Assembly (NCBI GenBank): GCA_964532525.1
Contig: CAZHIM010000003.1
Span: 4,819-68,818, forward strand
Length of the DNA stretch: 64,000 nucleotides
Reading direction: 5' to 3'
Source: an uncultured Bifidobacteriaceae bacterium
GTDB lineage: Bacteria > Verrucomicrobiota > Verrucomicrobiia > Limisphaerales > UBA11358
Shown: in pieces, positions 24,613 to 41,214 of the stretch
Position numbering within the stretch: position 1 is the first letter of the stretch
Layout: every line of letters begins with the position of its first letter
Position numbers and translations under genes: made by a program
Notes under the pieces: model-generated
Database searches by the model: none
What the model saw: the letters and a program-made list of their open reading frames with translations, nothing else
Told to the model about the DNA's origin: nothing

Positions 24613-25329
24613 ATGACGATTACCTTGTTCATACCGTGCTTCGTTGACCTGATGTATCCCGAAGTGGGCATCAGCATTGTTCGAATTTTTGAGAAGCTCG
24701 GGCACCAGGTGGTTGTGCCTCCCGCCCCGGCCTGTTGCGGTCAACCGGCGTTTAATTCCGGCTATTGGGATGAGGCCCGATCCACGGCGGTGAAGGTTCT
24801 GGAACAACTGCAATTCGCCGAGACCGTCGTTGTTCCCAGCGGCTCCTGCGGCGCGATGTTGAAGGTCTTCTATCGGGAGCTGTTCGCCGGCACGCCTCAC
24901 GCAGGCACCGCCCAAAAGCTCGCGGCCAAAACGCACGAGTTTTCCTCGTTCCTGGTCAACCAGCTCGGCGTGACCGACCTTGGCGCGAATTTTCCGCATA
25001 AAGTCACGTTCCATGACGGCTGCCACGGCCTGCGTGAATTGAACAACAAACTGCCGCCCCGCCAGTTGCTGGCCAAAGTGCGCGGATTGGAGTTGGTGGA
25101 GATGTCGCCGCCGGAAACGTGCTGCGGTTTTGGCGGCACGTTTTCCGCCAAGTTTCCAGCCATCGCCACCGCCATGGGCGAAGGCAAATGCGCCAGCATC
25201 CTGGACACCCAGGCCGACTATGTGGTCTCCTGCGATTCCAGTTGCCTGATGCAGATCCAGGGTCTGGCCAGCCGGCGGCAGATGCCGGTTAAAACCATCC
25301 ATCTCGCCCAAGTCCTGGCTGCGTCATGA
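24613..25329 (+). CDS. lutA: Lactate utilization protein A (CCG-domain Fe-S oxidoreductase subunit)
   Basis: ORF 24553..25329(+), start trimmed to ATG 24613 (MTITLFIPCFVDLMYPEVGISIVRIFEKLGHQVVVPPAPACCGQPAFNSGY). Second CCG motif ETCCGFGGTFS. Confidence 0.85.
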   Translation: MTITLFIPCFVDLMYPEVGISIVRIFEKLGHQVVVPPAPACCGQPAFNSGYWDEARSTAVKVLEQLQFAETVVVPSGSCGAMLKVFYRELFAGTPHAGTAQKLAAKTHEFSSFLVNQLGVTDLGANFPHKVTFHDGCHGLRELNNKLPPRQLLAKVRGLELVEMSPPETCCGFGGTFSAKFPAIATAMGEGKCASILDTQADYVVSCDSSCLMQIQGLASRRQMPVKTIHLAQVLAAS

Positions 25330-26720
25330 CTGCGCCCGCCGCCCAATTTAAGGCCGATGCCGGCCGGCTCTCTGCCGATCTGCGGCAGCGCGGTATTATC
25401 CAGACGGCGATGGGTAAATATGAAGTCGTGCGGGACCAGCGCAAGGCGGGTTTTCAAGACTGGCAAGGCGCGCGCGAACTGGCGGCGCGCACGAAATTCC
25501 AGGCGGTCAATCATCTCGGCCAATACTTGGAGGATTTGGCCTCCAAGCTCGAGGCGCGCGGCACCAAAGTCCATTGGGCCGGCACTGGCGCGCAGGCGCG
25601 CGAAATCATTTTAGCCATCTTGCGCGAGAAGCAGGCGCGCGTCGTGGTCAAATCCAAATCCATGACTTCCGAGGAAATTCACCTCAACGGCGCGCTGGAG
25701 GGGGCCGGCTATGAGGTGGTGGAATCCGATTTGGGTGAATTCATCATGCAACTGCGCGGGGAGCCGCCCTATCACTTGGTCTTCCCGTCCATGCACCTCA
25801 CCCGCGGCGAAATCCGGGACCTGTTCGCTGAAAAGTTGCACGACGCGCCTTCGGACAATCCCGAAGATCTGACGATGGTGGCGCGCCGGGTGTTGCGCCA
25901 AAAATATCTGCAAGCCGATATTGGCATTACGGGCGCGAATTTTGCCATTGCCGAAACCGGCATGATTTCCATCACGGAGAACGAGGGCAATGCCCGGCTC
26001 ACCGCCGCGCTGCCCAAGACGATGATCACGCTGGTCGGCATCGAAAAGATTCTGCCCCGCCTCGCCGATTTGGGCTTGTTCCTGCCCATGCTTGCCGTGA
26101 TGGGCGCCGGGCAGTTGTTGACGGGCTACAACACACTTTATGGCGGACCGCGCCAGCCGGGCGAGCCTGACGGACCGGAGGAATTCCACGTGGTCTTCCT
26201 GGACAATCAGCGAACCGCGCTGTTGGCCGACGCCGAGCAGCGCGATGCGCTGGGCTGTATCCGGTGCGGCGCCTGTCTGAACGTCTGCCCCATTTTCCGC
26301 AACGTCGGCGGCCACACTTACGGCACCACCTATGGCGGGCCGATCGGGTCGGTGATCACCCCGCACCTGCGTGGCTTGGCCGAGTGGAAACATCTGAGCG
26401 ACGCCTCGTCGCTTTGCGGCGCCTGCAGTGAAACTTGTCCGGTGAAGATTGAGCTGCACCATCATTTGCTGCAAAACCGCCGCAACGGAGCGCAAGCCAA
26501 ACCCAGTTGGTTCCAAAAAACTGCTTTCAAAATTTTCGCGGCGGTGGCGAACAATGCCCGGTGGTGGTCGCTCGTCACCAAGCTGGCCCGCGTGGGGCAG
26601 GTGTTTCAGAAACCGGTCAAAGGCACGGCGCTCGATCCGGCGTCTGTCTGGACCAAAACCCGGGATTTGCCGCCCGTGGCGAAAGAGAGTTTTCGCGAGT
26701 GGTGGAAAGGACGAAAATGA
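25326..26720 (+). CDS. lutB: Lactate utilization protein B (LUD domain plus 2 x 4Fe-4S)
   Basis: ORF 25326..26720(+). Start overlaps the lutA stop (ATGA). CIRCGACLNVCP and CGACSETCP cluster motifs. LUD-type TGANFAIAETGMISITENEGNARL. Confidence 0.85.
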   Translation: MTAPAAQFKADAGRLSADLRQRGIIQTAMGKYEVVRDQRKAGFQDWQGARELAARTKFQAVNHLGQYLEDLASKLEARGTKVHWAGTGAQAREIILAILREKQARVVVKSKSMTSEEIHLNGALEGAGYEVVESDLGEFIMQLRGEPPYHLVFPSMHLTRGEIRDLFAEKLHDAPSDNPEDLTMVARRVLRQKYLQADIGITGANFAIAETGMISITENEGNARLTAALPKTMITLVGIEKILPRLADLGLFLPMLAVMGAGQLLTGYNTLYGGPRQPGEPDGPEEFHVVFLDNQRTALLADAEQRDALGCIRCGACLNVCPIFRNVGGHTYGTTYGGPIGSVITPHLRGLAEWKHLSDASSLCGACSETCPVKIELHHHLLQNRRNGAQAKPSWFQKTAFKIFAAVANNARWWSLVTKLARVGQVFQKPVKGTALDPASVWTKTRDLPPVAKESFREWWKGRK

Positions 26721-27376
26721 GCGAACGGGAAGCCAGCTTTGCGCGCATTCGCGAAGCCTTGTCGGTGAAGGCCGTTGGGCATGACGGTGGTTTGCCAAGC
26801 GTGATCGAGCAGCGCGGCGTGTTGCCGGCCGTGGGTTCCGCGGATGAAGAGCGGTTGGCCCAATTCCGCAAAAATGCCGCCGATTTGCGGGCGGATTTTC
26901 AACAGTTTCCCAGTGAAGGCGACTTGATGGCCAGAGTGCGCGAGCTCTGCCAGGTCGAAGGCTGGAAAAAGATTGCCACCCACAATGGCAAGCTGGCCCA
27001 TGCGGTGGCGCAATCCCTGGGCGTGCCGGTGTTGAACACCACGGAGGGTTACGACAAACACGAATTGGCGGCCTGTGACGCCGGCATGACCGAATGCGAT
27101 GCCTTGGTGGCACAAACCGGAAGCGTGCTGGTGACCACCCTCAGTGCGGGCGGCCGGGCGTTGTCCTGCCTGCCCCCGCATCATATTGTTGTCGCGCGGC
27201 GGGAGCAATTGGTGCCCGATTTGCCCGCCGCCTTGGAACTATTGCAGCAGAAATACGGGACGAATTATCCCAGCATGATTTCCTTCATCACCGGCCCCAG
27301 CCGCACCGGAGACATCGAGCGTATTCTGGTCCTCGGCGCGCATGGACCGAAGAAGCTGACGATTCTGATGCTTTAG
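26717..27376 (+). CDS. lutC: Lactate utilization protein C (LUD domain)
   Basis: ORF 26507..27376(+), start trimmed to ATG 26717, which overlaps the lutB stop (ATGA): MSEREASFARIREAL... AGMTECDALVAQTGSVLV; SFITGPSRTGDIERILVLGAHGPKKLTILM. Confidence 0.8.
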   Translation: MSEREASFARIREALSVKAVGHDGGLPSVIEQRGVLPAVGSADEERLAQFRKNAADLRADFQQFPSEGDLMARVRELCQVEGWKKIATHNGKLAHAVAQSLGVPVLNTTEGYDKHELAACDAGMTECDALVAQTGSVLVTTLSAGGRALSCLPPHHIVVARREQLVPDLPAALELLQQKYGTNYPSMISFITGPSRTGDIERILVLGAHGPKKLTILML

Positions 27377-27599: not shown

Positions 27600-27785
27600 A
27601 TGAGCGCCAAAGAAATTCTCCTGGAGCTGGCGGAAAAGCTGCCAGCTGATGCCACCTTGACGGACGCGATCTACGAACTCGAATTGCGCCAAGCGGTGGA
27701 GCAAGGTTTGGCCGAGTTGGACCGTGGCGAAGGTGTTCCCATTGAACAGGTCAAAGCGCAAATCGCTTCATGGGCTGGCAAGTGA
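27600..27785 (+). CDS. Type II antitoxin (ParD/RelB-like small addiction-module component), 61 aa
   Basis: ORF 27600..27785(+). Small and helical; LRQAVEQGLAELDRGEGVPIEQVKAQI is typical of ParD-like C-termini. Overlaps the downstream toxin gene by 16 nt. Confidence 0.6.
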   Translation: MSAKEILLELAEKLPADATLTDAIYELELRQAVEQGLAELDRGEGVPIEQVKAQIASWAGK

Positions 27786-28057
27786 TCATTGCCCCGTCGG
27801 CCCGATCCGACTTGGCCGGCATCGTCCACTACATTGCCCAGCACAACTCCGACGCAGCCGCGAGGCCCGGTTATGAATTGATCACCCGTGCCGAAAGTTT
27901 GACACAATTTCCCGAAAGCGGCCGCATGGTGTCGGAATTTCGTCAGCCCGATTTACGCGAAATCATCTACCGGCTAAAACGCGAGGACAACCAGATTCAA
28001 ATCATCCGTTTCTGGCACGGGGCACGCGGCTTTCCGCACATTCCCAGCACTGGCTAA
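27770..28057 (+). CDS. Type II toxin, ParE/RelE superfamily, 95 aa
   Basis: ORF 27770..28057(+). W.VIIAPSARSDLAGIVHYIAQHNSDAA...FPESGRMVSEFRQPDLREIIYR...IQIIRFWHGAR is the plasmid-stabilisation ParE pattern. Confidence 0.75.
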   Translation: MGWQVIIAPSARSDLAGIVHYIAQHNSDAAARPGYELITRAESLTQFPESGRMVSEFRQPDLREIIYRLKREDNQIQIIRFWHGARGFPHIPSTG

Positions 28058-28127: not shown

Positions 28128-28679
28128 TCAAACCACTTCGCGGTACACATCCGGATGCGGCCGGGAAATCACCGCGCTGTTCACCAGCACACCCGCCTCC
28201 GCCAGCACGGCCCGCCCGGCGTTGACGCCCGCCAGCACCGAGGACACATCGCCGGTCATGGTGCAAAACGCCTTGCCTCCCATGGCCATGGCCAGGCGAA
28301 CTTCCAATAATTGCACGTCCGATGTCTTGGCCACCGTGTCGGCTGCTTGAATCAAGGTCGCCACATTGAACGATTCGATGATGCCCAGGGCGCCGGTCGG
28401 TTCCGCCGTTTGCGTGCGCCCCAGCGCCGCATAAACGTCCGGATGCAGGTTGGCGATGACAAAACTATCGATCAGGCAGCCCCCGGCGGCGTCCACGCCG
28501 GCTTGGACGGCGCCGTCCACGGCCGCCGTCTCGCCGCCGATCAGCACCATGTATTTCCCGGAACAAATCGAGCGCGATAAAATCAGCCGCACGTCCCCCG
28601 CCTTGAGCATTGTGTCCGCCACGACGAAACCGGCGGCAATGCTCGACAATTCAATCAAGCCAACGGATTTTTCGGCCAT
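28128..28679 (-). CDS. BMC-T shell protein (tandem BMC domains), PduT-like with a conserved pore cysteine
   Basis: ORF 28128..28679(-), 183 aa. Two BMC repeats (VGLIELSSIAAGFVVADTMLKAGDV... and LGIIESFNVATLIQAADTVAKTSDV...). SRSICSGKYM aligns with PduT SKTICPGKFL (Fe-S ligand Cys). Confidence 0.85.
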   Translation of the reverse strand: MAEKSVGLIELSSIAAGFVVADTMLKAGDVRLILSRSICSGKYMVLIGGETAAVDGAVQAGVDAAGGCLIDSFVIANLHPDVYAALGRTQTAEPTGALGIIESFNVATLIQAADTVAKTSDVQLLEVRLAMAMGGKAFCTMTGDVSSVLAGVNAGRAVLAEAGVLVNSAVISRPHPDVYREVV

Positions 28680-28683
28680 AATA

Positions 28684-29997
28684 TTATTTCTCCAAAATGA
28701 TTTGTCGGTCGTTCACCTCGCGCACCGTGCCGCTCATCGGCGCGTGCAGAATCGCGCCGAGCGCATGGGGCGCCGGCTCGCCGATGATCTGGCCGGCGCT
28801 CACGCGGTCCCCGGCTTTCACTTTCGCCAGGCACGGAGTTCCCGCGCTTTGCTTGAGCGGCAGCACGAGCCGGCTGGGGGAAATTTCCCGCCGCAGATAA
28901 GGCGCGGGCAAATCGTAGTCGAGCACGTGCAATTTCTTCGCCAGCGTCTTGATCGGCACCCGGCGGCCGTCCGCCATGGCGTGGACCTTGGGAGTCATCG
29001 GTCCGGTCCACTTGATCGCCTGGGCGCGCATGACGGCCTTGGCGTCATCGCAGGCTTCCTTGGGAAACAATTCCTCCGGGCAGGCATAGAGGGTGCACAG
29101 CCCGCACGAGCAGCACATGGCCGCCCATTGGCTGTAATATTCCGCGCCCGTGCCGGTAAACGCCAGCGTGCGCATGACTTGATGCGGTTCCACGGCGTAG
29201 CCGAGCAGGAAACGCGGGCAAAATTCCGTGCAATAGCGGCATTGGTCGCAGGCGGACTTGCCGATGGATGCCTGCTGCTTGGCGGGCTTGAGCTTCCGTT
29301 CGATGACATGGTGCGAGCGCGGCAAAATGATGACGCCGGTGGAAGTCTTCGTGACCGGCGCGTCGAGATCGTCAGTCGTGGTGCCCATCATCAGGCCGCC
29401 AACGCACAACACCGGATCATCCGTCGTGAGGCCACCGGCAAAGGCAATGCATTCGCGGAACGAGGTGCCAATGGGCGCGCGCAGGGTGCACGGCGATTTG
29501 ACGGCACCGGCAATGGTGAGCATTTTGTGCGTGAGTGGTTTGCCGTCGTGCGCCGCGGCAATGTTCACGAAGGTTTCGACGTTATTGACGACCGCGCCGA
29601 CGGCAATGGGAATGCCTCCGGGCGGAATCAATTTGCCGGTGACGTTGTAAACCAGATCGTATTCATCGCCGGCTGGATAATAATCACCCAGCAATTGCAC
29701 GCGGACCGGGGTGTTTTTGCACGCGGCTTGCGCGGCCGCCACGGCGGGCTTTTTCTTGGCTTTGATGCCAATCACGCCTTCCCGGGCGCCGACCGCTTCC
29801 ATGGCCAGTTGCATGCCCCGCACCATTTCGACGGCGTTTTCTTCCATCGTCACAGCATCCTTGTGCAACAGGGGTTCGCATTCCGCTCCATTGGCGATGA
29901 CGACCTCCGCCTGGGCGCCGAGCTTGACGTGGGTGGGAAATCCGCCGCCGCCCGCGCCGACGACGCCGGCCAGCCTGACTTGTTCTGCGATCTTCAT
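28684..29997 (-). CDS. PduS/RnfC-like flavo-iron-sulfur electron-transfer protein, 437 aa
   Basis: ORF 28684..29997(-). GVVGAGGGGFPTHVKL (NADH/FMN-binding 51K-like). Two ferredoxin motifs, CDQCRYCTEFCP and CCSCGLCTLYACP. The C-terminal VLPLKQSAGTPCLAKVKAGDRVSAGQIIGE...ILHAPMSGTVREV resembles the RnfC barrel-sandwich domain. Confidence 0.8.
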   Translation of the reverse strand: MKIAEQVRLAGVVGAGGGGFPTHVKLGAQAEVVIANGAECEPLLHKDAVTMEENAVEMVRGMQLAMEAVGAREGVIGIKAKKKPAVAAAQAACKNTPVRVQLLGDYYPAGDEYDLVYNVTGKLIPPGGIPIAVGAVVNNVETFVNIAAAHDGKPLTHKMLTIAGAVKSPCTLRAPIGTSFRECIAFAGGLTTDDPVLCVGGLMMGTTTDDLDAPVTKTSTGVIILPRSHHVIERKLKPAKQQASIGKSACDQCRYCTEFCPRFLLGYAVEPHQVMRTLAFTGTGAEYYSQWAAMCCSCGLCTLYACPEELFPKEACDDAKAVMRAQAIKWTGPMTPKVHAMADGRRVPIKTLAKKLHVLDYDLPAPYLRREISPSRLVLPLKQSAGTPCLAKVKAGDRVSAGQIIGEPAPHALGAILHAPMSGTVREVNDRQIILEK

Positions 29998-30000
29998 TGA

Positions 30001-30795
30001 CTAGGTTTTTTCGTTCGCCGCGCCGGTGGATGCCGGCGCCGGCGCCACCACAACTTCAACGCCGCGCTCGCGCAAGCCAGCCACCAAATCTTGCGGCGCT
30101 TCGCTATCCGTGACCACGGTGTCGATCACGTCCAGTCCGCAAAGCGGCAAAACGGATTGGCGGCCAAATTTCGTATGGTCGAGACAGAAAACAACCTTGT
30201 GGGCCGCTTTGAGCATTGCGTGTTGGATGTCAATCAGCAGTGCGTGCGAATTCGTAATGCCTTCCAGCGTGATGCCGCCGGCGCTCATGATCGCCACGTC
30301 CGCGCGCATTTTTGAAAACGCCTCGACCGTCATCGGGCCAACCAGCACCTCCAGTCGCGGATAAATCACGCCTCCGGCCAAAATCACTTCCACCTTGTTT
30401 GCCGACGCATAAAGATTCGCGATTGGCAGCGAGTTGGTCACGATCTGCGGTGCTTTGTCCTCAAGATGGCACGCGACGTGATACACCGTCGAGCCGGCGT
30501 CCAGAATCAGGCTTTGATTGGCGCCAATGAGTTCCGCGCAGGCTTTGCCGATCAACTCTTTTTCCGAAAGCTGTTTGGCGCCCCGCGCCGTGAAGGCAAA
30601 TTCATCCGACTTCGGCGTCACGATGCGCGCGCCGCCATGCGTGCGCCGCAAATTGCCCTCCGGTTCCAAGGCCGACAAATCCCGTCGCACCGTGGAAATC
30701 GACGCTTCCACGTGCTGGGAAAGTTCCTCCAATGAAGCGAATTCCACGCGTTGGAGATACTCTTCGATGCGATGTTTGCGTTCTTCCGCCGTCAT
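30001..30795 (-). CDS. DeoR-family transcriptional regulator
   Basis: ORF 30001..30795(-). RIEEYLQRVEFASLEELSQHVEASISTVRRDLSALE HTH plus a DeoR C-terminal sugar-phosphate sensor domain. Divergent from the BMC structural operon. Confidence 0.85.
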   Translation of the reverse strand: MTAEERKHRIEEYLQRVEFASLEELSQHVEASISTVRRDLSALEPEGNLRRTHGGARIVTPKSDEFAFTARGAKQLSEKELIGKACAELIGANQSLILDAGSTVYHVACHLEDKAPQIVTNSLPIANLYASANKVEVILAGGVIYPRLEVLVGPMTVEAFSKMRADVAIMSAGGITLEGITNSHALLIDIQHAMLKAAHKVVFCLDHTKFGRQSVLPLCGLDVIDTVVTDSEAPQDLVAGLRERGVEVVVAPAPASTGAANEKT

Positions 30796-30979
30796 ATGTT
30801 GGGTAATCCATCAGATCATCTTTGGGTTGTCCGGCACGCATGGTGCGCACCGCGGTGAGTCAAACTGCACAAAAATGACCGATATTGACCAGAACGTTCT
30901 AGCAGATAACAGAAATTGACACATTTTGCAAGATAATTATTGACATTGATTAAATATCTATCAAACTAGTGCAAAATCT
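30796..30979. promoter_or_regulatory. Divergent control region between deoR-pduS-pduT(-) and the pduL...aldolase(+) operon
   Basis: 184-bp intergenic region whose right half is strongly AT-rich in a GC-rich genome. ATTGACA occurs twice as a direct repeat (30915-30921 and 30939-30945, 24-bp spacing); each contains a TTGACA -35-like hexamer. Confidence 0.5.
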
Positions 30980-31657
30980 ATGACAGCGGTTGCGTTAGCA
31001 CCTCATCGTGCCGTGGTTGAACACCTCGTTCGGCAGGCGGTTTATGCGCGTTTGGGCAGACCGTTGCCGCGCTCGGTAAGCGCACCGAATCCCTTGGTGG
31101 TCAATGTCAGCGCGCGTCACTGTCACCTTACCGAAGCGGCGGTTGAAATCCTGTTTGGCAAAGGCCACAAATTGACCGTTCACAAATGGCTCTATCAAGA
31201 CGGGCAGTTTGCAGCAAAGGAAACGGTTACCTTGATCGGACCGCGCAGCCGGGTGATATCCAATTTGCGCATCTTGGGGCCGTGCCGGAATTTCACCCAA
31301 GTCGAGCTGGCGTACACCGATTCCATCGCGCTGGGATTCGACATTCCGTTGCGTCCTTCCGGCAGCATCAAGGACACGCCCGGCTGCATGTTGATGGGGC
31401 CGGCGGGATTCTTTGAGATGAACGAAGGGGTCATTCGGGCGCTTAGGCATGTGCATATGAGCCCAACCGACGCGGATTTTTACGGTGTGAAACCCGGCGA
31501 TTGGATGAAGCTCAGGATCGGCGGTGACTGCGGGCTCACGCTGGACAGGATGTTCTGCCGCGTGGACAAGAGTTTCAAATTGGAGGTCCACATCGACACC
31601 GACGAGGGGAACGCCTGCAACCTGCAGCCCGACACGCCGGTGGGATTGACCGCATAA
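30980..31657 (+). CDS. pduL: Phosphotransacylase PduL with an N-terminal encapsulation-peptide-like helix
   Basis: ORF 30980..31657(+). VNVSARHCHLTEAAVEILFG, RILGPCRNFTQVELAYTDSIALG, IRALRHVHMSPTDADFYGV, EVHIDTDEGNA are the two PduL repeats. The N-terminal AVVEHLVRQAVYARLG is amphipathic. Confidence 0.88.
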   Translation: MTAVALAPHRAVVEHLVRQAVYARLGRPLPRSVSAPNPLVVNVSARHCHLTEAAVEILFGKGHKLTVHKWLYQDGQFAAKETVTLIGPRSRVISNLRILGPCRNFTQVELAYTDSIALGFDIPLRPSGSIKDTPGCMLMGPAGFFEMNEGVIRALRHVHMSPTDADFYGVKPGDWMKLRIGGDCGLTLDRMFCRVDKSFKLEVHIDTDEGNACNLQPDTPVGLTA

Positions 31658-31693
31658 ATTACTCAACTATCAACTAACAACCAAAGCAAGTAT

Positions 31694-31984
31694 ATGAGCG
31701 AAGCAATAGGAATGATCGAAACCAAGGGCTACGTGGGCAGTGTGGAAGCGAGCGATGCCATGGTGAAGGCGGCCAATGTCACCCTGCTCAAAACCGTGCT
31801 CATTGGCGGCGGTCTCATCACGGTCATCGCCAGGGGGGACGTGGGGAGCATCAAAGCCGCCGTGGATGCGGGGGCGAAAGCGGCTGCCAAGATAGGCGAG
31901 CTCGTGGGCTCACACGTCATCGCCCGGCCGCACGAAGAACTGCTGGCAGCCTTCATTGGCAGCGCTGCCGGAGCGAAGAAATGA
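31694..31984 (+). CDS. BMC-H shell protein (PduA/CcmK type), 96 aa
   Basis: MSEAIGMIETKGYVGSVEASDAMVKAANVTLL...VIARGDVGSIKAAVDAGAKAAAKIGELVGSHVIARPHEE. Confidence 0.92.
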   Translation: MSEAIGMIETKGYVGSVEASDAMVKAANVTLLKTVLIGGGLITVIARGDVGSIKAAVDAGAKAAAKIGELVGSHVIARPHEELLAAFIGSAAGAKK

Positions 31985-32016
31985 CCCACAACCCAAACCT
32001 TTAGCCATTAATTGAT

Positions 32017-32295
32017 ATGTCAAAAGAAGCTGTTGGAATGATTGAAACCAAAGGTTTCTGCGCCGCCATGGAGGGTGCGGATGCCGCGCTGAAATCGGCG
32101 AATGTGCGGATCACCGGCTGGGAAAAGGTTGGCAGCGGTTATGTCACGGTGTTCTTCCGGGGCGATGTGGCTGCCGTCAAGGCCGCGACGGATGCCGGGG
32201 CCGCGGCCGCCGCACAAATCGGTTCGGTCGTCAGCGTCCAGGTGATTCCCCGTCCGCACGACAGTCTGAGCGGCTTGGGCAAGTGGCTCGAATAA
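32017..32295 (+). CDS. BMC-H shell protein, 92 aa
   Basis: [81 protein letters not shown]. Confidence 0.9.
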
Positions 32296-32369
32296 GAGCG
32301 GCATGCGGAGTGCCGAGTGGGGCATGAGTCTGCTCGCGCCCGGCCATTCCCCGTGCGGTTCCGAATTTG

Positions 32370-33560
32370 ATGAAAATTCTCGTCGCCAATATTGGATCAA
32401 CTTCGCTGAAGTGGCGGTTGTTTGATTTTTCGAACAACGCCGAGCGACTTTTGCACAAGGGCGGCTTCGAGCGGGTGACGGATTATCCGCAGGCGATTGA
32501 AGATTGTCTGCATGCATTGATTGCCGCCAAGGCGATCACGAGTGAAAGCGAGCTGGATGCGGTGGGGTTCAAGACGATCATTGCCAAGAACATCACGGGT
32601 TGCGTGCGGGTGGAAGCGAGCGTATTGCAGGCCATGGAAGAATTTAACGGGCTCGCACCGGCGCATAATCCGCCCTACATCATGGGAATCAAGCTCTTTG
32701 CCCGGCGGGTGCCCACCGTCCCGCTCATCACACTGTTTGAAACCTCCTTTCATCAATTTGCGCCCGAGGCGTCGCAACGCTACGCGGTGCCGGCGGCGTG
32801 GGCGGACCTCGGGGTGCGCCGCTGGGGATTTCACGGGGCGAGCCACAAGTTCATTGCGGAACGCTCGGCCGAATTGCTTTGCCGGTCGGACGTGGCCGAG
32901 CGGGCGCGCCAGCTGTATGTAAACCTGGGCGCCACCCCGGTTTCCGGCCCGCCGCTGCGCGTGATTTCCTGCCACCTCGGCGGCAGTTCGAGCGTCACCG
33001 GCATCCTGAACGGCGCCTCCATTGGCACGAGCATGGGCATGAGCCCGCAATCCGGGTTGCCGCAAAACAACCGGGTGGGCGACCTCGATGCGGAGGCGCT
33101 GCCCTACGTGGTCAAGACGCTGGGAATCTCGATTGAAGAAGCGCAAAAGCAGCTCACCCAACAGTCCGGCTTGCTCGGTCTGAGCGGTGTTTCAAACGAC
33201 GTCCGCGACATCGCGGCGGCGGCCGCCCAAGGCAACCCCCGGGCGAAGCTCGCGCTGGAAGTTCTGGCCGCCAGTGCGCGGCACTGGATCGGAAGTTATT
33301 TTTTCGAATTGAACGGGGCGGACGCGATTGTGTTCACGGCCGGCACGGGTGAAAATTCGCCCGAGGTGCGGGCGGCCATCTGCGCGAATTTGGAGAACCT
33401 CGGCATCCGGCTGGATCCGGCGAGAAACCAAGCGGCCCGGGGGGCCGAAGCCATCATCAGCGCCGCCGATTCCCCGGTGAAGCTGTTGGTGATTCCCACG
33501 AATGAGGAACTCGTCGTGGCGCGGGAAGCGAAGCGATTTTTGGAAACGAAGAAAAATTAA
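32370..33560 (+). CDS. ackA: Acetate (acyl-phosphate) kinase
   Basis: ORF 32367..33560(+), which opens TTG then ATG; ATG 32370 preferred. [79 protein letters not shown]. Confidence 0.9.
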
Positions 33561-33597
33561 TTTTACGAAAACTCCTGGTCCTAAACACAACCAAATT

Positions 33598-33879
33598 ATG
33601 CCTCAAGCCATTGGAATGATTGAAACGCGCGGACTCGTCGCCCTCGTCGAGGGGACGGACGCCATGCTCAAAGCCGCAAACGTCGAACTGGTCGGCCCGG
33701 TAACCCAGGTCGGCAACGCGCTGGTGACCGCCTGCGTCGTAGGCGATGTTGCCGCCGTCAAAGCCGCCACGGACGCCGGCGCGCAAGCCATCAAAGCCAT
33801 CAAAGGCGAATTGGTGAGCGTGCATGTCATCGCCCGCCCGCACAACGATGTCGAAGCCATTCTGCCGAAAAGGAAATAG
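33598..33879 (+). CDS. BMC-H shell protein, 93 aa
   Basis: ORF 33502..33879(+), start trimmed to ATG 33598: [33 protein letters not shown]...[36 protein letters not shown]. Confidence 0.9.
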
Positions 33880-33960
33880 TCTGACGCCGCGGAGCGAGCG
33901 CGAATGCGGCCCGGGTTTTCCGGGGCCCATCCGGGTTCCATCCCTGGCGGAAAGGAAACC

Positions 33961-34272
33961 ATGTTTCTAGGCAAAGTTGAAGGCACCGTGGTCGCCACCA
34001 AAAAAGATCCGGCCATGAACGGGCGCAAGCTGCTGCTGGTGCGGCCGCAACTCGTGGATGAAAAAGACCCGACGAAATTTCGGCCGGGCGTGAACACGAT
34101 CGTGGCGGTGGATAGCGTCGGCTGCGGCGAAGGCGAAATGATTCTCTTCTGCCAAGGCAGCAGCGCGCGGCTGGCGGGCGGCCTGAAGGAGGCGCCGGTG
34201 GATGCCGTGGTGATCGGCATCGTGGACAGCGTGGATGTGTTCGGGAAACAAATCTTCAGTGCGAGAAGCTAG
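33961..34272 (+). CDS. BMC-P vertex protein (EutN/CcmL family), 103 aa
   Basis: ORF 33904..34272(+), start trimmed to ATG 33961: MFLGKVEGTVVATKKDPAMNGRKLLLVRP...VAVDSVGCGEGEMILFCQGSSAR...VDAVVIGIVDSVD. Confidence 0.85.
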   Translation: MFLGKVEGTVVATKKDPAMNGRKLLLVRPQLVDEKDPTKFRPGVNTIVAVDSVGCGEGEMILFCQGSSARLAGGLKEAPVDAVVIGIVDSVDVFGKQIFSARS

Positions 34273-34284
34273 CAACAGACTGGT

Positions 34285-35790
34285 ATGAATGCCGTGAACG
34301 AGACTTTGATCCGAGACGTGGTGGCCGAAGTGCTTGGCAAGCTGGGCGGCGCCACCGCCACCGCCACAATATCGGCTCCGGCAGCCGCCCCCGCACCCCG
34401 GACAGAGCCTTGCGCGGGCAGCGTGAAACGATCCACCGGCGCGCCCGCGCTGCGCGGCAAGTTTGGCGTGTTTGCGACGGCGGACGAAGCTTGTGAAGCG
34501 GCGCAGGAAGCGTTTTTGCAATTGAAGGAAAAGGGCGTCGCGGCCCGCCGCAAGATCGAGAACATCGTCAAGACGATGGCGGAAAAGAACGCCGGGGCGT
34601 GGGGCAAGCTCGAATTGGACGAAACCCGGCTCGGCCGCCTCGACCACAAGATCGCCAAGCTTCAAATCCTCAAGCTTGTTCCCGGCGTGGACTGGTTGCG
34701 GCCCGATGCGCGCAGCGGCGACTTCGGCATTACGCTGGAGGAATACACTCCCTTCGGCGTGGTCGGCGCGATCACGCCCAGCACGCACTCGATTCCCACG
34801 ATGAGCGGCAACGTCGTGAGCATCACCGCCGCGGGAAATTCGGTGGTGTTCAATGCTCATCCCAGCGCGGCCCGGTGCGCAGCGGTGGCGGTGCGCGCCT
34901 ACAACGAGGCGATTTACCGTGAAACTGGCATCGAAAACGTCGCGTGCATCATCGAGAAACCGACGCTGGAATCGTTCAATGCGCTGTGCAAAAATGAATT
35001 CGTCCGCCTGCTGCTGGTCACCGGCGGCCCGGCCGTGGTCAAGGCGGCGATGCAGACGGGCAAGCGCGCGATTTGCGCCGGCCCGGGGAATCCTCCCGTG
35101 CTGGTGGATGACACCTGTTGTCCAACGCGCGCGGCCAAGGGGATCATCGCCGGCGCGGCCTTCGACAACAACCTCCTGTGCGTCGGCGAGAAACAGGTTT
35201 TCGTGCTCGACCAGGTTGCTGACAAGCTGATGCAGAAGCTTGCGGAAAACGGCGCGGTGAAGCTCAATTCCGCGCAGTTGGAAAAGCTCACGAAGGCGGC
35301 CTTTACCTTCAAGGAAGGGCAGGGGGGCGGTTGCGCCCACGCCAGCGTGAACAAGGATTTCATCGGCAAAGATCCCGGCGTTCTGGCGCAAGCCGCGGGC
35401 CTCAACCTGCCCGCCGGCACGCAGTTGCTTTTCGCCGAAACGGACGCGATGCATCCGTTCGTGCAGGAAGAACAGATGATGCCGTTCCTGCCGATCGTGC
35501 GTGTCAGAGATGTCGAGGAAGGCATCGCCTGCTCGCTGCAATCGGAACACAATTACAAACACACCGCCATCATTCACTCGCATGATGTCGAGCACATGAC
35601 GGCCATGGCGCGCGCGTTGGACACGACGCTGTTCGTGAAGAACGGCGCCTCTTCCACCGGTCTGGGGCTGGGCGGCGAGGGCTACCTGAGCTATTCGATC
35701 GCCACGCCCACGGGCGAAGGCATCACGAATCCGCGCACCTTCACCCGCGTCCGCCGCTGCGTGATGGTGGACAACCTGAGGATTTACTAG
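34285..35790 (+). CDS. CoA-acylating aldehyde dehydrogenase (PduP/EutE-like) with an N-terminal encapsulation peptide
   Basis: ORF 34285..35790(+). N-terminal amphipathic ETLIRDVVAEVLGKL followed by an Ala/Pro linker. ITPSTHSIPT, FDNNLLCVGEK (catalytic Cys), HSHDVEHM. Confidence 0.88.
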   Translation: MNAVNETLIRDVVAEVLGKLGGATATATISAPAAAPAPRTEPCAGSVKRSTGAPALRGKFGVFATADEACEAAQEAFLQLKEKGVAARRKIENIVKTMAEKNAGAWGKLELDETRLGRLDHKIAKLQILKLVPGVDWLRPDARSGDFGITLEEYTPFGVVGAITPSTHSIPTMSGNVVSITAAGNSVVFNAHPSAARCAAVAVRAYNEAIYRETGIENVACIIEKPTLESFNALCKNEFVRLLLVTGGPAVVKAAMQTGKRAICAGPGNPPVLVDDTCCPTRAAKGIIAGAAFDNNLLCVGEKQVFVLDQVADKLMQKLAENGAVKLNSAQLEKLTKAAFTFKEGQGGGCAHASVNKDFIGKDPGVLAQAAGLNLPAGTQLLFAETDAMHPFVQEEQMMPFLPIVRVRDVEEGIACSLQSEHNYKHTAIIHSHDVEHMTAMARALDTTLFVKNGASSTGLGLGGEGYLSYSIATPTGEGITNPRTFTRVRRCVMVDNLRIY

Positions 35791-35792
35791 GC

Positions 35793-36071
35793 ATGCAACT
35801 GGCGCGCGTCGAAGGCAACCTGGTGGCGACCCGGAAGCATCCGAGTTACGACGGGTGGCGGCTGGTGATTTGCCAGCCGATTGGCAACGCCGGCGAGTCT
35901 GAGGGGGCGCCGATCATTGCGATTGATTCGCACGGAGCGGGCATGCACCAGCATGTGATCATCTCGTCCGACGGCAAGGCGGCCCGCAAGGCCGTGGGGA
36001 TTGACCGCAGCCCGGTGCGCTGGCTGGTGATTGGCATCGTGGACGAAGCCAAGCCGGGCGAACGAATTTGA
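35793..36071 (+). CDS. BMC-P vertex protein, 92 aa
   Basis: MQLARVEGNLVATRKHPSYDGWRLVICQPIG...IAIDSHGAGMHQHVIISSDG...VRWLVIGIVDE. Confidence 0.85.
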   Translation: MQLARVEGNLVATRKHPSYDGWRLVICQPIGNAGESEGAPIIAIDSHGAGMHQHVIISSDGKAARKAVGIDRSPVRWLVIGIVDEAKPGERI

Positions 36072-36074
36072 AGT

Positions 36075-36380
36075 GTGAAACTAGGAACCGTCATTGGCCG
36101 CGTGACCTTGAGCCGGAGCGAGAAAGCGCTCACCGGCGGGCGTTTCCTCATCGTCAGCCCCTTCAGCCGGGAACAATACCATCAAGGGCTCTCGGCTGAG
36201 ACGGGCATGGGCACCGACCCCAGCCTGATCGTGTATGACGACTTGGGCGGTGGCGCGGGCGACGTGATCGGCTACGAAGAAGGCGGGGAGGCCGCCCAGC
36301 CGTTTCCGCAGCCCACGCCGGTGGACGCTTACAACTGTGCTTTGGTGGACGAGATATTTTACCGCCGCTGGAAGGGCTGA
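36075..36380 (+). CDS. BMC-P vertex protein, 101 aa, GTG start
   Basis: MKLGTVIGRVTLSRSEKALTGGRFLIVSPFS...LIVYDDLGGGAGDVIGYEEGGEAAQPF...VDAYNCALVDEI. Third EutN/CcmL paralog in the operon. Confidence 0.8.
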   Translation: MKLGTVIGRVTLSRSEKALTGGRFLIVSPFSREQYHQGLSAETGMGTDPSLIVYDDLGGGAGDVIGYEEGGEAAQPFPQPTPVDAYNCALVDEIFYRRWKG

Positions 36381-36400
36381 TTTAAATTTGAGCGTATTTT

Positions 36401-37492
36401 ATGAACCGAGTTATCAGTGTTCGTGACATTCAGGAAATGGTCCGCAATGGCCAGGCCGTCGTCATCCCGGACGACGCGCTCGTGACGCCGGCGGCGCGCG
36501 ATTTGATGGGCGAATTGGAAACGAATGGCCATTTGAAGCCAGCGGCATCCGCGAGCCCGGGCGCCTCTTCCGCAAACGGGGCCGGCCATGGCGCCGCCAA
36601 AAATGGCGAACCCTTGGCGCCGCCGGAGAAAAAGTATTCGTCGAAATCGTCCAAGGCGGAGCTGGAGGCCTATTTCAATTCCCCCTACGTGCACAGTCTC
36701 AAGCTGCAAATTTGTGAAATGGGCCGCCACCTGTGGGAACGGGAATACGTGGACGGCAACGGCGGCAACATGGCGATTCGCGTGGGCGAGGACATCGCCG
36801 TTTGCACTCCGACGCTGGTCAGCAAAGGGTCGCTCAAGCCTGAAGACATGTGCCTGGTGGATTTCGACGGGAATCAAATTCTCGGCCCGAAGAAACGCAC
36901 CAGCGAAATCTTGATGCATTTGCAGATTATGAAACGCCAGCCCAAGGCGGTGGCCACGTGCCATTGCCACCCGCCCTATGCCACGGCGTTCGCGGTGGTT
37001 GGCCAGGCGCCGCCCACCTGCATGCTGCCGGAATACGAGGTGTTCTGCTCGGTGGGGGTGGCACCTTATCGCACACCCGGTTCACCGGACATGGGCAAGC
37101 TGGTGGCTGATTTGAGCGACCAATACAACACCATTCTCATGTCGAATCACGGAGTGGTCACTTGGAGCCATAATACCATTGAGGAAGCCTACTGGCGCAT
37201 GGAGATCGTGGAGGCGTACTGTCGTACGATTGTGGTGGCGGGACAGCTCGGCAAGCCCATCAACACTTTCACCGGCCCGCAGATGAAGGAAATTCTCAAT
37301 ATCAAGCAGAGCCTGGGTTTCGTGGACCCGCGTTTTGGCATGAAGGAATGTGAGTTGTGCGACAGCGGGGAATGGCGTCCCGGCGTGACTTGCCCAACGG
37401 AGGCGGAACCGGCGGCCGGTCTCGATCCCGAGGCGGAAGCGATGGTCAAAGCGATTACGGACCAGATTCTGTGCCAGATTAACCCCGTCTAA
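36401..37492 (+). CDS. Class II aldolase (L-fuculose-/L-rhamnulose-1-phosphate aldolase type) with an N-terminal extra domain and a C-terminal amphipathic tail
   Basis: ORF 36401..37492(+). Aldolase core GNGGNMAIRVGEDIAVCTPTLVSKG...TSEILMHLQIMKRQPKAVATCHCHPPYATAF...LMSNHGVVTW. Residues 1-40 (VISVRDIQEMVRNGQAVVIPDDALVTPAARDLMGE) plus a ~60-aa Ala/Pro/Ser/Gly/Lys linker precede it. C-terminal tail EAEAMVKAITDQILCQINPV. Confidence 0.85.
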   Translation: MNRVISVRDIQEMVRNGQAVVIPDDALVTPAARDLMGELETNGHLKPAASASPGASSANGAGHGAAKNGEPLAPPEKKYSSKSSKAELEAYFNSPYVHSLKLQICEMGRHLWEREYVDGNGGNMAIRVGEDIAVCTPTLVSKGSLKPEDMCLVDFDGNQILGPKKRTSEILMHLQIMKRQPKAVATCHCHPPYATAFAVVGQAPPTCMLPEYEVFCSVGVAPYRTPGSPDMGKLVADLSDQYNTILMSNHGVVTWSHNTIEEAYWRMEIVEAYCRTIVVAGQLGKPINTFTGPQMKEILNIKQSLGFVDPRFGMKECELCDSGEWRPGVTCPTEAEPAAGLDPEAEAMVKAITDQILCQINPV

Positions 37493-37663: not shown

Positions 37664-37846
37664 ATGATGGATCTGACCTCCAATGAAGAAGAGTGGGGCC
37701 TATTGTTGTGGGGTAAAGTGTATGATACGAAGCTGGCGGATTGGTGCGCAATCAGCACTGGCACATTCGGATTTGATCCGGTAAATTTTGACGACACGAA
37801 CGCACTTGATTTGCCCCAGCGTTTTTATCGTATCGTTTGCCACTAA
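37664..37846 (+). pseudogene. Orphan 60-codon ORF resembling only the C-terminal FYRI-type domain of the large secreted proteins; a possible gene remnant
   Basis: ORF 37664..37846(+) ends ...WCAISTGTFGFDPVNFDDTNALDLPQRFYRIVCH. Compare the termini QQAFYRIVK (17101), QMFFRIQTQ (40853), NQFFRLLVSP (10354), ATFFRLVYP (56941). An in-frame TGA lies 15 nt upstream and there is no signal peptide. Confidence 0.35.
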
Positions 37847-37880
37847 TGGACCTGGGCAGACAGTTGCCGGCGTGAGAAAG

Positions 37881-40853
37881 ATGAAGATGAGTTTTAAAAA
37901 AATATCGTGGTTCGTGGCCGGCCTGCTGGTCTCGCTCCAATGGGCGGCCTGCGCGCCGCGGGCATCAGCAACCACGGCGATGATTTTTTGCAATGGCGAC
38001 ATGGGCACCGCGGCTGGTCTGACCTCTTCGCAAATCAGCGGTTTTCGCGCCTCGGGCCTCACCACCATGGTGCTGTTCGCGATGAGCATTTCGACGAATG
38101 GCACCTTTACTTATGGCGGCCAGACGATTTGCACCAACGGGGTGTATGTAGGGCCGTCCAACTGGGGGTCACTCCTCAGCCAGTGCCTGACGGCGCCATC
38201 GAGCGTGACCCGGATCGAGATGTGCGTCGGCGGCTGGGGCGACACGAGCTGGACCAGCATCAAGAACCTCATCGCCGCCAACGGCACCAGCTCCAGCACC
38301 GTGCTTTACCAAAACCTGAGCGCCTTGAAAAATGCCCTGGGAATCGCCGCCATCGACAGCGATGACGAGGGCACCTACGACTCGGGTTCGGCGATCAGCT
38401 TTGGCCAGATGTGCGCGGCCCTGGGCCTGAAATTGACGCTCTGTCCCTATACGGATTCCGGCTATTGGGCCGCGGTGAAAGCCGGTTTGGGCAGCGAGGT
38501 GGATTACACGTATCTCCAATGCTACTCCGGCGGCGCGGGCAACGATCCGGCGGCTTGGGCGAGCGCCATGGGAGTTCCCGTGTCGCAGATCACCCCGGGT
38601 TATTGGGACTCCGAGCGCGACACCACGTTTTTGACCAACATGCTGACGTGGGCAGGCGAAGGATGCACGGGAGGATTTCTCTGGCCGTCCTGCTCTGGCT
38701 GCACTCCCCCGGCCGGGCCCAGTGAAATGCTCCAATATGCGCAGTGGATAGATCAGGCCTTCTACATCTTCGAGCCGGTGGTGACGCCGGCCAACGGTTT
38801 TGCCGGCGTGGCGGCCTACAACCTTCAAGCCTTGCCCGCGAGCACGCTGTTCACCCTTTCAAACTCCGGTGCCAGCACACTTTCTTGGAGCGTAATCAAC
38901 ACTTCAAGCTGGCTGAATGTCTCAAGTTCCTCGGGCACCCTGGCCACCGGGGTGACGACGTCCGTGACCGTGAGCTTGAACACGGCCGTGGCGACCAATC
39001 TGACGCAAAGCGTTTATGCCGCCAGCATCGTTTTCAGCAACCAGACCGTCGCGGTGGCGGTGGCGCGCAATTTCACGTTGGACACTGCCATCGCCAACTG
39101 GCCCGTTGCGTTGACCGGACTCAACGCGGCGTTGCTCGCGAGTAATTCAGCCACGGCGGGCAGTCCGGGGGCCACGGCGTTTGATATTCCCAATGATTAT
39201 TGCTTTTACCAGCAGGGTTTGAGCGGCGGCACGCAAGGCCTGCCTTTAAGCGGCAATTTTCCCAGCCAGTGCGACAGCACGACGGTGTTTCAACTCGGAC
39301 CGTACGGGGCCGCCGATGCGTTGATCATGGGCGACACCCATGCCTCATCCGGCACGCTGGCGCTGGCCAGTCCGGCGGCGTTTAACTCCCTGGCCATCCT
39401 CGCCGCCTCGGCCAATGGCGGCGGTCAGGGGACATTTGTGCTGAACTTCACCAACGGCACCCATAGTCCGGTGTTTGCGTTCAATTGCCAGGACTGGTTT
39501 TACACGGTCACCAACGTGGCCATTCAAGGATTCGGGCGGCTGCAACTCTCGGGCTGGACAATCCAGAACAACGGCAGTTCCAATCCGAATCTTTATGAGA
39601 CCGTGGTCAATCTGGCCGCGCTCGGTCTGGCGCAGCCGATTTCTTCCATCACGTTTTCCAATCCGGTCGGTGCCGGTGGCTCGCAAAGCACGGCCATTTT
39701 TGCCATCAGCGGGATGCCTGCGAGCATTCCGGTGCAAACGCCCACTGGCTTGACGGCGATGCCCGGCAGCAACGCGACGGTGCAATTGTCTTGGCGTGCC
39801 TCAACGGGCGCGACGAACTACAACGTCAAACAGTCCGCGGTCAGCGGCAACTCGTATGTCACGGTCGCCGGAGTGCCCGGCACCAGCTACACGGCCACCG
39901 GTTTGGGCAACGGCTCGATTTATTACTACGTTGTGTCAGCGGTCGGCGTGGCCAACGAAAGCACGAACTCCAGCCAGGTCAGCGCCATGCCCGGCTCATA
40001 TTTAAGCTGGGCTTTGGCCGCGAACCCGGTTGCCTATTGGCCGCTGAATGAATCCTCCGGGACCCTCGCGTATGACCTGGTTCAAGGCAGCAACGGCATT
40101 TACGCCGGCGGTTACACCTTGACGACGGGCGGTTTCGTGGGCGCCGGATTCAACAATCCACACCGGATCGTGGTTTACAACGGTTCGAGCGGCGACACCC
40201 AGATTCCACGGCTGATCGGCAGCACCAATTTCTCGATCGTCTTTTGGGTCAAGACCGGCGCCACCGGCGGCAGTCCGAACTGGTATAACGGGATGGGCTT
40301 GGTGGACGGCGATGTTTCCGGCGTGGCCAACGATTTTGGTGTGGCGCTGGTCGGGGGCAAAGTTGGTTTTGGCATCGGCAATCCGGACACCACGTTGTCT
40401 TCCGTCAAGGCCATCAACAACAATGTCTGGCATCAGGTGGCCGTCACGCACGATGCGGGCAGCGGCGCGATGGACATTTATATTGATGGCGCGTTTGACA
40501 GCAGCCTGACCGGCCCCACCGGCGCGCACACCGCGCCGCCCGATCTGATGCTCGGCAGAATCCAAAGCGGCGGCGGATATTTCAACGGCAGCCTGTCCGA
40601 CGTGAGCATGTATCAGCAGGTGCTCTCGACGAATCAGATTGCCACGCTTTACCGGGCCGCCACCGGGCTGTTTTACAACGTGACGCTCACCAACCTGATC
40701 ACCGGAGGCAATCTCGTTTTGAGCTGGCCAGGCAATGGAAAATTGCTTGCCGCAACCAATCTGGCCGGACCGTGGGCAACCAATGTATCCAGCTCACCAG
40801 TTACCATGATGCCAACTCAGACGCAGATGTTTTTCCGCATACAAACGCAATAG
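37881..40853 (+). CDS. Secreted multidomain protein: GH18-like TIM barrel, Ig/BACON-like region, FN3, LamG, C-terminal FFRI-type domain; ~990 aa
   Basis: ORF 37788..40853(+), start trimmed to ATG 37881 (MKMSFKKISWFVAGLLVSLQWAACA). CVGGWGD...LGIAAIDSDDEG fits the GH18 DxDxE catalytic pattern. FN3-like PTGLTAMPGSNATVQLSWRASTGATNYNVKQS...YYYVVSAV. LamG opening VAYWPLNESSGTLAYD. Ends LVLSWPGNGKLLAATNLAGPWAT...QMFFRIQTQ. Confidence 0.6.
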   Translation: MKMSFKKISWFVAGLLVSLQWAACAPRASATTAMIFCNGDMGTAAGLTSSQISGFRASGLTTMVLFAMSISTNGTFTYGGQTICTNGVYVGPSNWGSLLSQCLTAPSSVTRIEMCVGGWGDTSWTSIKNLIAANGTSSSTVLYQNLSALKNALGIAAIDSDDEGTYDSGSAISFGQMCAALGLKLTLCPYTDSGYWAAVKAGLGSEVDYTYLQCYSGGAGNDPAAWASAMGVPVSQITPGYWDSERDTTFLTNMLTWAGEGCTGGFLWPSCSGCTPPAGPSEMLQYAQWIDQAFYIFEPVVTPANGFAGVAAYNLQALPASTLFTLSNSGASTLSWSVINTSSWLNVSSSSGTLATGVTTSVTVSLNTAVATNLTQSVYAASIVFSNQTVAVAVARNFTLDTAIANWPVALTGLNAALLASNSATAGSPGATAFDIPNDYCFYQQGLSGGTQGLPLSGNFPSQCDSTTVFQLGPYGAADALIMGDTHASSGTLALASPAAFNSLAILAASANGGGQGTFVLNFTNGTHSPVFAFNCQDWFYTVTNVAIQGFGRLQLSGWTIQNNGSSNPNLYETVVNLAALGLAQPISSITFSNPVGAGGSQSTAIFAISGMPASIPVQTPTGLTAMPGSNATVQLSWRASTGATNYNVKQSAVSGNSYVTVAGVPGTSYTATGLGNGSIYYYVVSAVGVANESTNSSQVSAMPGSYLSWALAANPVAYWPLNESSGTLAYDLVQGSNGIYAGGYTLTTGGFVGAGFNNPHRIVVYNGSSGDTQIPRLIGSTNFSIVFWVKTGATGGSPNWYNGMGLVDGDVSGVANDFGVALVGGKVGFGIGNPDTTLSSVKAINNNVWHQVAVTHDAGSGAMDIYIDGAFDSSLTGPTGAHTAPPDLMLGRIQSGGGYFNGSLSDVSMYQQVLSTNQIATLYRAATGLFYNVTLTNLITGGNLVLSWPGNGKLLAATNLAGPWATNVSSSPVTMMPTQTQMFFRIQTQ

Positions 40854-41214
40854 CCCTTGCGGATTTTTAAGGAGCCGCCTGATTTCCGCCGGTGAACGGT
40901 TGCTCAAGCGGCGCCGAAAGCCGGCGCGAATGATGAGATCAGTGTCGGAATTGGGTCGTAAGGCGACTCATCGCTTTGGACTATCGACGCCGGATCGCCG
41001 TTGCGGATAGCCTTTATAAAAATAGCTTGATCCAATGCCGCCCCGGCGGCGGGGAAAATCCGGGAACAGTGAATCGCGTTCGCCCCGGATAGCATTGGAC
41101 GAAAGAAACCAACACACCAACCATTTTGCCACGGACAAACCTGCGCCAACGATTCACCGGGCGGCACCGTTTTGGCCATTCACGCATCATTTACCATTGA
41201 ATCATTCAGATCCA

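Follow-up and report, generated by a model that had tools for sequence, protein, structure and literature searches.

A predicted PVM-type metabolosome locus with an adjoining PduS/PduT-like gene pair in an uncultured verrucomicrobium

The window analysed here comprises 64,000 nt of contig CAZHIM010000003.1 (assembly GCA_964532525.1), and the locus in question occupies its positions 28128-37492. Thirteen genes of a bacterial microcompartment (BMC) are encoded there, all with intact reading frames and strong family matches in the open reading frame (ORF) list for 24-42 kb and in the Pfam scans (Table 1). Judged from these genes, the region very probably represents a metabolosome of the Planctomycetes/Verrucomicrobia (PVM) type from a subdivision 3 (Limisphaerales-like) verrucomicrobium, with a proposed fucose/lactaldehyde pathway. 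The PVM organelle is a protein shell for the breakdown of fucose and rhamnose in Verrucomicrobia and Planctomycetes, which contains the toxic lactaldehyde. All genes named in the first-pass annotation were found intact, in the order and orientation given there, by ORFs, Pfam and the JGI gene calls of an identical public contig, which give the same gene set. The starts of the acetate kinase gene and of the third BMC-H gene follow these calls, and the start of the first BMC-P gene was corrected from 33904 to 33961, where conservation across 60 orthologues begins. Copies of the contig with identical sequence are already public from several metagenomes.

Table 1. Features of the predicted PVM locus and of its upstream neighbours in the 64,000-nt window
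Feature	Position	Strand	Family match or remark
BMC-T, PduT-like	28128..28679	-	two PF00936 domains, E 1.2e-41
PduS-like flavo-iron-sulfur protein	28684..29997	-	PF01512 E 9e-45, with SLBB, Fer4_17 and C-terminal RnfC_N
DeoR-family regulator	30001..30795	-	HTH_DeoR and DeoRC, E 5.5e-42
Divergent intergenic region, 184 bp	30796..30979	.	candidate operator read in the sequence
PduL-type phosphotransacylase, PvmB equivalent	30980..31657	+	PF06130 E 1.6e-69; NF011652 236 bits (cut-off 209)
BMC-H hexamer, PvmD position	31694..31984	+	PF00936 E 5.4e-26
BMC-H hexamer, PvmE position	32017..32295	+	PF00936 E 5e-28; 53-55% identity to the other two BMC-H
Acetate/propionate-family kinase, PvmG equivalent	32370..33560	+	PF00871 E 1.5e-92; TIGR00016 313 bits (cut-off 293)
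Third BMC-H hexamer	33598..33879	+	PF00936 E 4.7e-22
BMC-P pentamer, most canonical, PvmH position	33961..34272	+	PF03319 E 4.2e-28
CoA-acylating aldehyde dehydrogenase, PvmJ equivalent	34285..35790	+	NF011927 584 bits (cut-off 403)
BMC-P, divergent paralogue 1, PvmK position	35793..36071	+	PF03319 E 7.5e-26
BMC-P, divergent paralogue 2, PvmM position	36075..36380	+	PF03319 E 3.7e-14
Class II aldolase, signature enzyme, PvmN equivalent	36401..37492	+	PF00596 E 3.3e-42
L-fucose isomerase	20843-22666	+	Fucose_iso N1/N2/C domains, E down to 3e-91
FucP permease	22902-24173	+	TIGR00885 305 bits (cut-off 280)
LutABC lactate oxidation	24553-27376	+	CCG and LUD domains, LutB_C

The hallmarks of PVM loci are a core of a class II aldolase as signature enzyme, an acylating aldehyde dehydrogenase of family PF00171 and PduL, and a shell of BMC-H proteins and a triplet of distinct BMC-P proteins; such loci are restricted to Planctomycetes and Verrucomicrobia (Axen 2014, Sutter 2021). 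DeoR and acetate kinase are listed as ancillary genes (Axen 2014), and 285 PVM loci had been catalogued by 2021 (Sutter 2021). We used this definition, together with the Pvm gene names from Supplementary Data 6 of Sutter 2021. The locus in the window encodes an aldolase with a C-terminal encapsulation peptide, the aldehyde dehydrogenase and PduL, DeoR and acetate kinase, a BMC-P triplet of one standard and two divergent proteins, and three BMC-H proteins, where the definition asks for at least two. Its plus-strand order (PduL-H-H-Ack-H-P-AldDH-P-P-aldolase, with AldDH for the aldehyde dehydrogenase) parallels the Pvm names B, D, E, G, H, J, K, M, N, and the closest genomes are labelled Verrucomicrobia subdivision 3, Limisphaerales or Pedosphaera. 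Because gene content, order, pentamer triplet, signature enzyme and taxon all match the definition, the locus is assigned to the PVM type. The proposal that an aldolase plus three pentamer paralogues mark the PVM fucose/rhamnose organelle therefore agrees with the content and order of characterised PVM loci.

On the same comparison the locus is PVM proper rather than "PVM-like", as the first-pass annotation had called it. That label belongs in the literature to another type, found mostly in Firmicutes, which is without the pentamer triplet. The PVM-like and GRM5 loci share with the window a homologous aldolase with a C-terminal peptide, a DeoR regulator and fucose or rhamnose as substrates. 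However, the enzymes of PVM-like loci are GRM5-related and GRM5 has a glycyl radical diol dehydratase, and the window, with its pentamer triplet and verrucomicrobial taxon, fits neither of them under the definitions given in Axen 2014 and Sutter 2021. The ACI microcompartment of Acidobacteria also combines an aldolase carrying a C-terminal encapsulation peptide with a BMC-P triplet, but it has a hydroxyacid dehydrogenase, its aldehyde dehydrogenase lies on a satellite locus, and gene content and taxon are unlike those of the window.

The PVM microcompartment has been characterised in Planctopirus (Planctomyces) limnophila, where it serves the aerobic degradation of fucose and rhamnose with lactaldehyde as the sequestered intermediate, and it is thus linked by experiment to all three compounds. 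This pvmA-O locus was reportedly described by Erbilgin et al. in 2014. Compared by published gene names, the window shares with it (Axen 2014, cluster 4.1) the aldolase with C-terminal peptide, the aldehyde dehydrogenase, PduL, acetate kinase, DeoR, BMC-H proteins, the BMC-P triplet and a colinear order. The window differs in a third BMC-H gene, in PduS/PduT genes contiguous with the main locus, and in the absence of PvmO (lactate/malate dehydrogenase family) and PvmL (PF02441 flavoprotein). Neither of the latter two was found in the locus or among the scanned window ORFs of at least 180 aa, and they are not hidden within the locus since the intergenic gaps are too small to hold them. The first-pass statement that the accessory content departs from the canonical locus is thus correct as to the differences, which are nevertheless already described (see below for PduS/PduT).

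Verrucomicrobial PVM loci in Ca. Fucivorax and Ca. Mariakkermansia metagenome-assembled genomes (MAGs) and in Limisphaera isolates share with the window three BMC-H and three BMC-P proteins, the aldolase and the dehydrogenase, as well as a fucose/rhamnose context beside sulfatases and glycosidases. For these loci a route from lactaldehyde by way of lactyl-CoA and lactyl phosphate to lactate has been proposed, and electron microscopy of Limisphaera, which belongs to the same order, showed microcompartments in cells grown on rhamnose. In comparison the window copy comes from an uncultured relative whose aldolase is at most 80% identical to those of species-representative genomes, and it is in no way functionally distinct.

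A scan of one genome per species revealed 264 genomes with an aldolase relative, and the best 80 of these 264 (aldolase identity 69-80%), almost all carrying the taxon labels given above, were taken as related loci onto which the window proteins were mapped by BLASTP. In each of the 80 that is long enough the genes run DeoR< PduL> H> H> Ack> H> P> AldDH> P> P> aldolase>, except that three are without the acetate kinase gene in an otherwise equal arrangement. Orthologous proteins are 56-98% identical. Such an invariant core order at these identities indicates purifying selection, and the locus can be regarded as an intact and common one that is under selection. NCBI, JGI and ENA already contain the exact aldolase sequence, and more than 120 clusters are found at a full-length identity of at least 71%. 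A plasmid search for annotated PVM loci returned distant aldolases only.

The same verrucomicrobial locus has been deposited under unrelated names (L009, L011, L020, L039, L041, L057, L061, L077 and others among our related loci), including Bifidobacteriaceae, Sulfotelmatobacter, Pseudomonadales and Kapaibacterium. As these records share identical synteny, the odd labels are probably due to mis-binning or mislabelled MAGs. Two genes of the relatives were not seen in the window. Pedosphaera-like PVM loci have a gene for a 329-aa beta-carbonic anhydrase (PF00484, E 1.6e-53; L055:5122-6111, also in L063, L073 and L076) between those for acetate kinase and the third BMC-H, and a 469-aa ORF without Pfam match lies directly 3' of the aldolase gene in 16 related loci (e.g. 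L039:10945-12354), which could be a conserved accessory gene or a spurious frame.

Pairwise identity among the three BMC-H proteins is 53-56%, and the KAAN and ARPH interface motifs can be read in their sequences; the third one occurs in every related locus covering this stretch, with 87-98% identity. The three BMC-P proteins show only 22-38% mutual identity. Paralogue 1 is 38% identical to the first BMC-P and paralogue 2 is 22-27% identical to the other two, while the best PDB pentamer match falls from 70 bits (to 4JW0) for the first BMC-P to 49 bits for paralogue 1 and only 24.5 bits for paralogue 2. The sequence divergence thus has the pattern of one standard and two special pentamers.

Encapsulation-peptide-like helices had been reported for PduL, the aldehyde dehydrogenase and the aldolase. 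All three proteins indeed carry, outside the catalytic domain, a conserved helix with a pattern of hydrophobic and polar pairs; its location is the one known for each family, and both location and paired hydrophobic residues agree with the published survey of encapsulation peptides. The helices were judged from conservation patterns across orthologues; hydrophobic-moment scoring gave no discrimination of encapsulation peptides in these proteins. In PduL the peptide is N-terminal (residues 9-25), with HRAVVEHxVRQxVY kept ahead of the phosphotransacylase domain in 48 sequences. The aldehyde dehydrogenase carries it at residues 5-20 (NETLIRDVVxEVLG, conserved in 64 sequences), followed by an Ala/Pro/Ser/Thr linker that varies in sequence and length. 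The aldolase ends in a conserved DxEAExxVKAITDQIL after a variable linker, and the corresponding helix is modelled at residues 343-358 (AlphaFold model with a poor mean pLDDT of 61). The acetate kinase opens directly with its kinase domain and has no terminal extension, so that it is probably cytosolic. Within the linker of the aldehyde dehydrogenase most orthologues have a CGC motif, where the window copy reads CAG (34400-34440).

The aldolase begins with a conserved domain of some 45 aa, which a variable linker joins to the catalytic domain (residues 98-299); a conserved cysteine-containing segment follows, then a second variable linker and, at the C-terminus, the encapsulation peptide. The catalytic domain matches FucA-type PDB structures with only 40-75 bits, and E169, H188, H190 and H250, the zinc and acid residues, do not vary. 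A cysteine motif, MKECELCD...WRPG, is conserved after the catalytic domain (window 37340-37370); this motif and that in the aldehyde dehydrogenase linker might take part in metal binding or redox sensing.

The N-terminal domain (residues 1-45, window 36401-36540; ISxRDxxxMxxxG...TPSARDxL, then the linker) is kept in aldolases down to 31% identity, including those of Puniceicoccus vermicola and Terriglobia-labelled ones, which share the approximately 45-aa TPxARD domain. For the window sequence no Pfam, NCBIfam or PDB match was obtained, a local hidden Markov model (HMM) of the extension recognized no protein besides the aldolase in 84 loci, and no description of this domain was found in the literature. 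A weak lead is a match to the PduM C-terminus (PF15953), given by 1 of about 16 diverse sequences (E 0.004-0.005). The domain could be a second, undescribed module for assembly or shell binding. A fused PvmL domain was also considered as the origin of the extension and rejected, as neither Pfam nor NCBIfam gives such a match. The 36-position model "HMM02441_01.PVM" is an encapsulation-peptide HMM for the PF02441 flavoprotein and thus lends no support to a PvmL fusion.

The minus-strand genes for the PduS-like and PduT-like proteins are, by their domains and motifs, the published MNdh (metabolosome NADH dehydrogenase)/BMC-T^SE module. The window pair shares with this module (Sutter et al., PNAS 2024) the PF01512-SLBB-2x[4Fe-4S]-PF13375 architecture, the adjacent pore-cysteine tandem-BMC trimer, an aldehyde dehydrogenase in the same locus and the absence of an alcohol dehydrogenase from it. 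In the PduS-like protein PF13375 (RnfC_N) is C-terminal, circularly permuted with respect to RnfC (7ZC6) as published for MNdh, and in 19 sequences GAGGGGFP and a pair of CxxCxxC...CP motifs are kept. The best NCBIfam match of the BMC-T protein is PduT (TIGR02526, 127 bits, under its cut-off), and its best PDB matches are 3NWG and PduT 3N79/3PAC. The cysteine in SRSICSGKY aligns with the pore cysteine of 3NWG and with the corresponding PduT position, and ICSGKY is invariant in 17 orthologues.

For a Clostridium homologue, electron transfer by MNdh/BMC-T^SE from NADH to the cluster of the BMC-T was shown, regeneration of NAD+ in the lumen was proposed, and 361 BMCs carry the module without an alcohol dehydrogenase (Sutter et al., PNAS 2024). 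It is also known in PVM, mostly on satellite loci (18/20; Sutter et al., PNAS 2024), whereas the window copy adjoins the main locus and has CSGK as its pore motif. Adjacency was likewise seen in 12 of the 27 relatives covered on both flanks, so that the arrangement in the window is a frequent variant of the clade and already explained. A PvmO-like gene follows the aldolase gene in four relatives (L035, L059, L062 and L080) and is therefore to be seen as accessory, not universal.

It is doubtful, though worth stating, that the MNdh pair has become fixed beside the PVM locus in the operon of the regulator, that PvmO has been lost and that the system is fully oxidative, with the N-terminal aldolase domain, as a separate matter, being a second module. 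If true, all lactaldehyde would be converted by way of lactate to pyruvate through the adjacent LutABC, without propanediol as a by-product.

The BMC-T, PduS-like and DeoR genes are separated by gaps of just 3-4 nt and are for that reason probably co-transcribed, and DeoR is kept at the same position in every related locus that reaches it. The divergent intergenic region contains ATTTTGCAAGAT followed by the inverted TGCAAAAT. The 9-mer TTTGCAAGA, present as an inverted pair in the window, was found in 19 of 35 orthologous deoR-pduL intergenic regions and its inverted pair is a candidate DeoR operator. A scan for promoters and terminators gave no excess of sites over shuffled sequence. As suggested by the homologues, DeoR would control both divergent operons.

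Genes for L-fucose isomerase (FucI), FucP and LutABC lie directly upstream of the locus, which supports a route from fucose through lactaldehyde and lactate to pyruvate. LutABC adjoins the locus in five relatives and FucP in three, and an FGGY kinase adjoins some related loci. In the proposed pathway L-fucose would be taken up by FucP, isomerised to L-fuculose by FucI and phosphorylated by a kinase whose gene lies beyond the window. Within the shell, composed of the three BMC-H, one BMC-T and three BMC-P paralogues, the aldolase would cleave the sugar phosphate to dihydroxyacetone phosphate and L-lactaldehyde, the aldehyde dehydrogenase would convert the latter to lactyl-CoA and NADH, and PduL would recycle CoA with formation of lactyl phosphate. 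The acetate-family kinase would then yield lactate and ATP, and LutABC would oxidize lactate to pyruvate. Short amphipathic encapsulation peptides are expected to target aldolase, dehydrogenase and PduL to the lumen. There, the PduS-like MNdh would regenerate NAD+, its two 4Fe-4S clusters taking the electrons onward to a 4Fe-4S cluster that the PduT-like trimer binds with its pore cysteines, by which they would leave the shell; this would replace PvmO of the type locus. The substrate, lactyl intermediates, electron export and regulation in this scheme are drawn from published work on homologues.

The locus had been called complete. This holds only for shell and core enzymes: the 64 kb window yielded neither a fuculokinase nor an NAD+-recycling dehydrogenase of the alcohol or lactate family.

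Several points weigh against the PVM reading with its fucose pathway. Besides the fuculokinase, rhamnose genes and a lactaldehyde reductase are absent from the window, so that this fragment does not encode the whole pathway. The aldolase stays under every curated NCBIfam cut-off, its best model being 3-oxo-tetronate 4-phosphate decarboxylase (105 bits) and not FucA, and its substrate therefore rests on context and homologues. The pore motif has Ser in place of the Pro in the published CP(G/S)K. PvmO and MNdh are not strict alternatives, because both co-occur in L035. A placement of the pentamers in the published colour clades by way of PDB matches failed, the grey-clade reference MSM0273 not being among the hits. 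The PVM assignment made here from sequence comparison rests on content, order and taxon.

The aldolase scores leave some room for the same shell and core enzymes acting on another sugar phosphate or aldehyde, such as that of another deoxy-sugar or a tetronate-type compound. The enzyme is only distantly related to FucA, FucA and RhaD models fall far under their cut-offs for it, and class II aldolases are promiscuous (Axen 2014). We nevertheless consider another substrate improbable, as FucI and the above-threshold FucP adjoin the locus, FGGY kinases and FucP are found beside orthologous loci, and PVM aldolases of this family have been tied to fucose and rhamnose by experiment.

Further genes of the window bear on its surroundings. 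Between lutC and the BMC-T gene a ParE toxin (PF05016) is encoded together with a 61-aa upstream ORF, likely the antitoxin (27600-28057, +); in L001 and L003 the gene-order map is empty at this place. The stretches 37788-48495 and 57805-59622 encode secreted LamG/fn3 proteins of large size together with three sulfatases and a prepilin-type N-methylation protein, one sulfatase being fused to cadherin-like and PATR repeats (1607 aa). The flanking sulfatase and LamG genes fit a neighbourhood for breaking down sulfated glycans that contain fucose or rhamnose. A gene pair 17 kb upstream of the BMC locus (10508-13704, +) encodes a glycyl radical enzyme activase, which passes the TIGR02494 cut-off, and, after it, a divergent and short glycyl radical enzyme (11467-13704, 745 aa). 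Among PDB entries the latter is best matched by B12-independent glycerol and diol dehydratases, and its NCBIfam scores all stay far under cut-off. The pair lies among secreted LamG, 3-keto-disaccharide-hydrolase-like and ASD1-domain proteins and is unusual company for a polysaccharide-utilisation cluster.

With such an enzyme and its activase in the window, and with diol dehydratases among its best structural relatives, an anaerobic GRM5-like or "PVM-like" system can be imagined, in which lactaldehyde would be reduced to 1,2-propanediol, this dehydrated by the glycyl radical enzyme, and propionaldehyde held by the shell; GRM5 loci likewise carry an aldolase, DeoR and PduS. This is very improbable, however, since the enzyme belongs to a separate gene cluster and scores far under curated family cut-offs, while the locus has the pentamer triplet, the acetate kinase, the PVM gene order and a verrucomicrobial host, and PVM-like and GRM5 loci come mostly from Firmicutes, the PVM-like ones without the triplet. 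A decaying or unexpressed remnant, for which one could point to the missing PvmO, PvmL and kinase and to the ParE cassette inserted beside the locus, hardly deserves consideration in view of 13 of 13 intact reading frames, kept catalytic residues, 56-98% identity to orthologues in dozens of species, tight gene packing and identical contigs from several metagenomes.

Nothing in the PVM reading of the locus is conceptually new: the literature already describes the organelle type, its enzymes, the targeting peptides and the NAD+-recycling module, and dozens of genomes have near-identical loci. What is left are small loose ends: the CSGK motif of the pore, the MNdh pair often lying beside the main locus in this clade and the N-terminal domain of the aldolase. 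The locus is of modest value as a further example in which MNdh/BMC-T^SE apparently takes the place of an alcohol or lactate-family dehydrogenase, and for drawing attention to an uncharacterised N-terminal domain of PVM aldolases. Judged from the locus, and in keeping with the sulfatase, LamG and fucose genes around it, this uncultured verrucomicrobium appears to be equipped to consume fucose and rhamnose from sulfated or plant polysaccharides.

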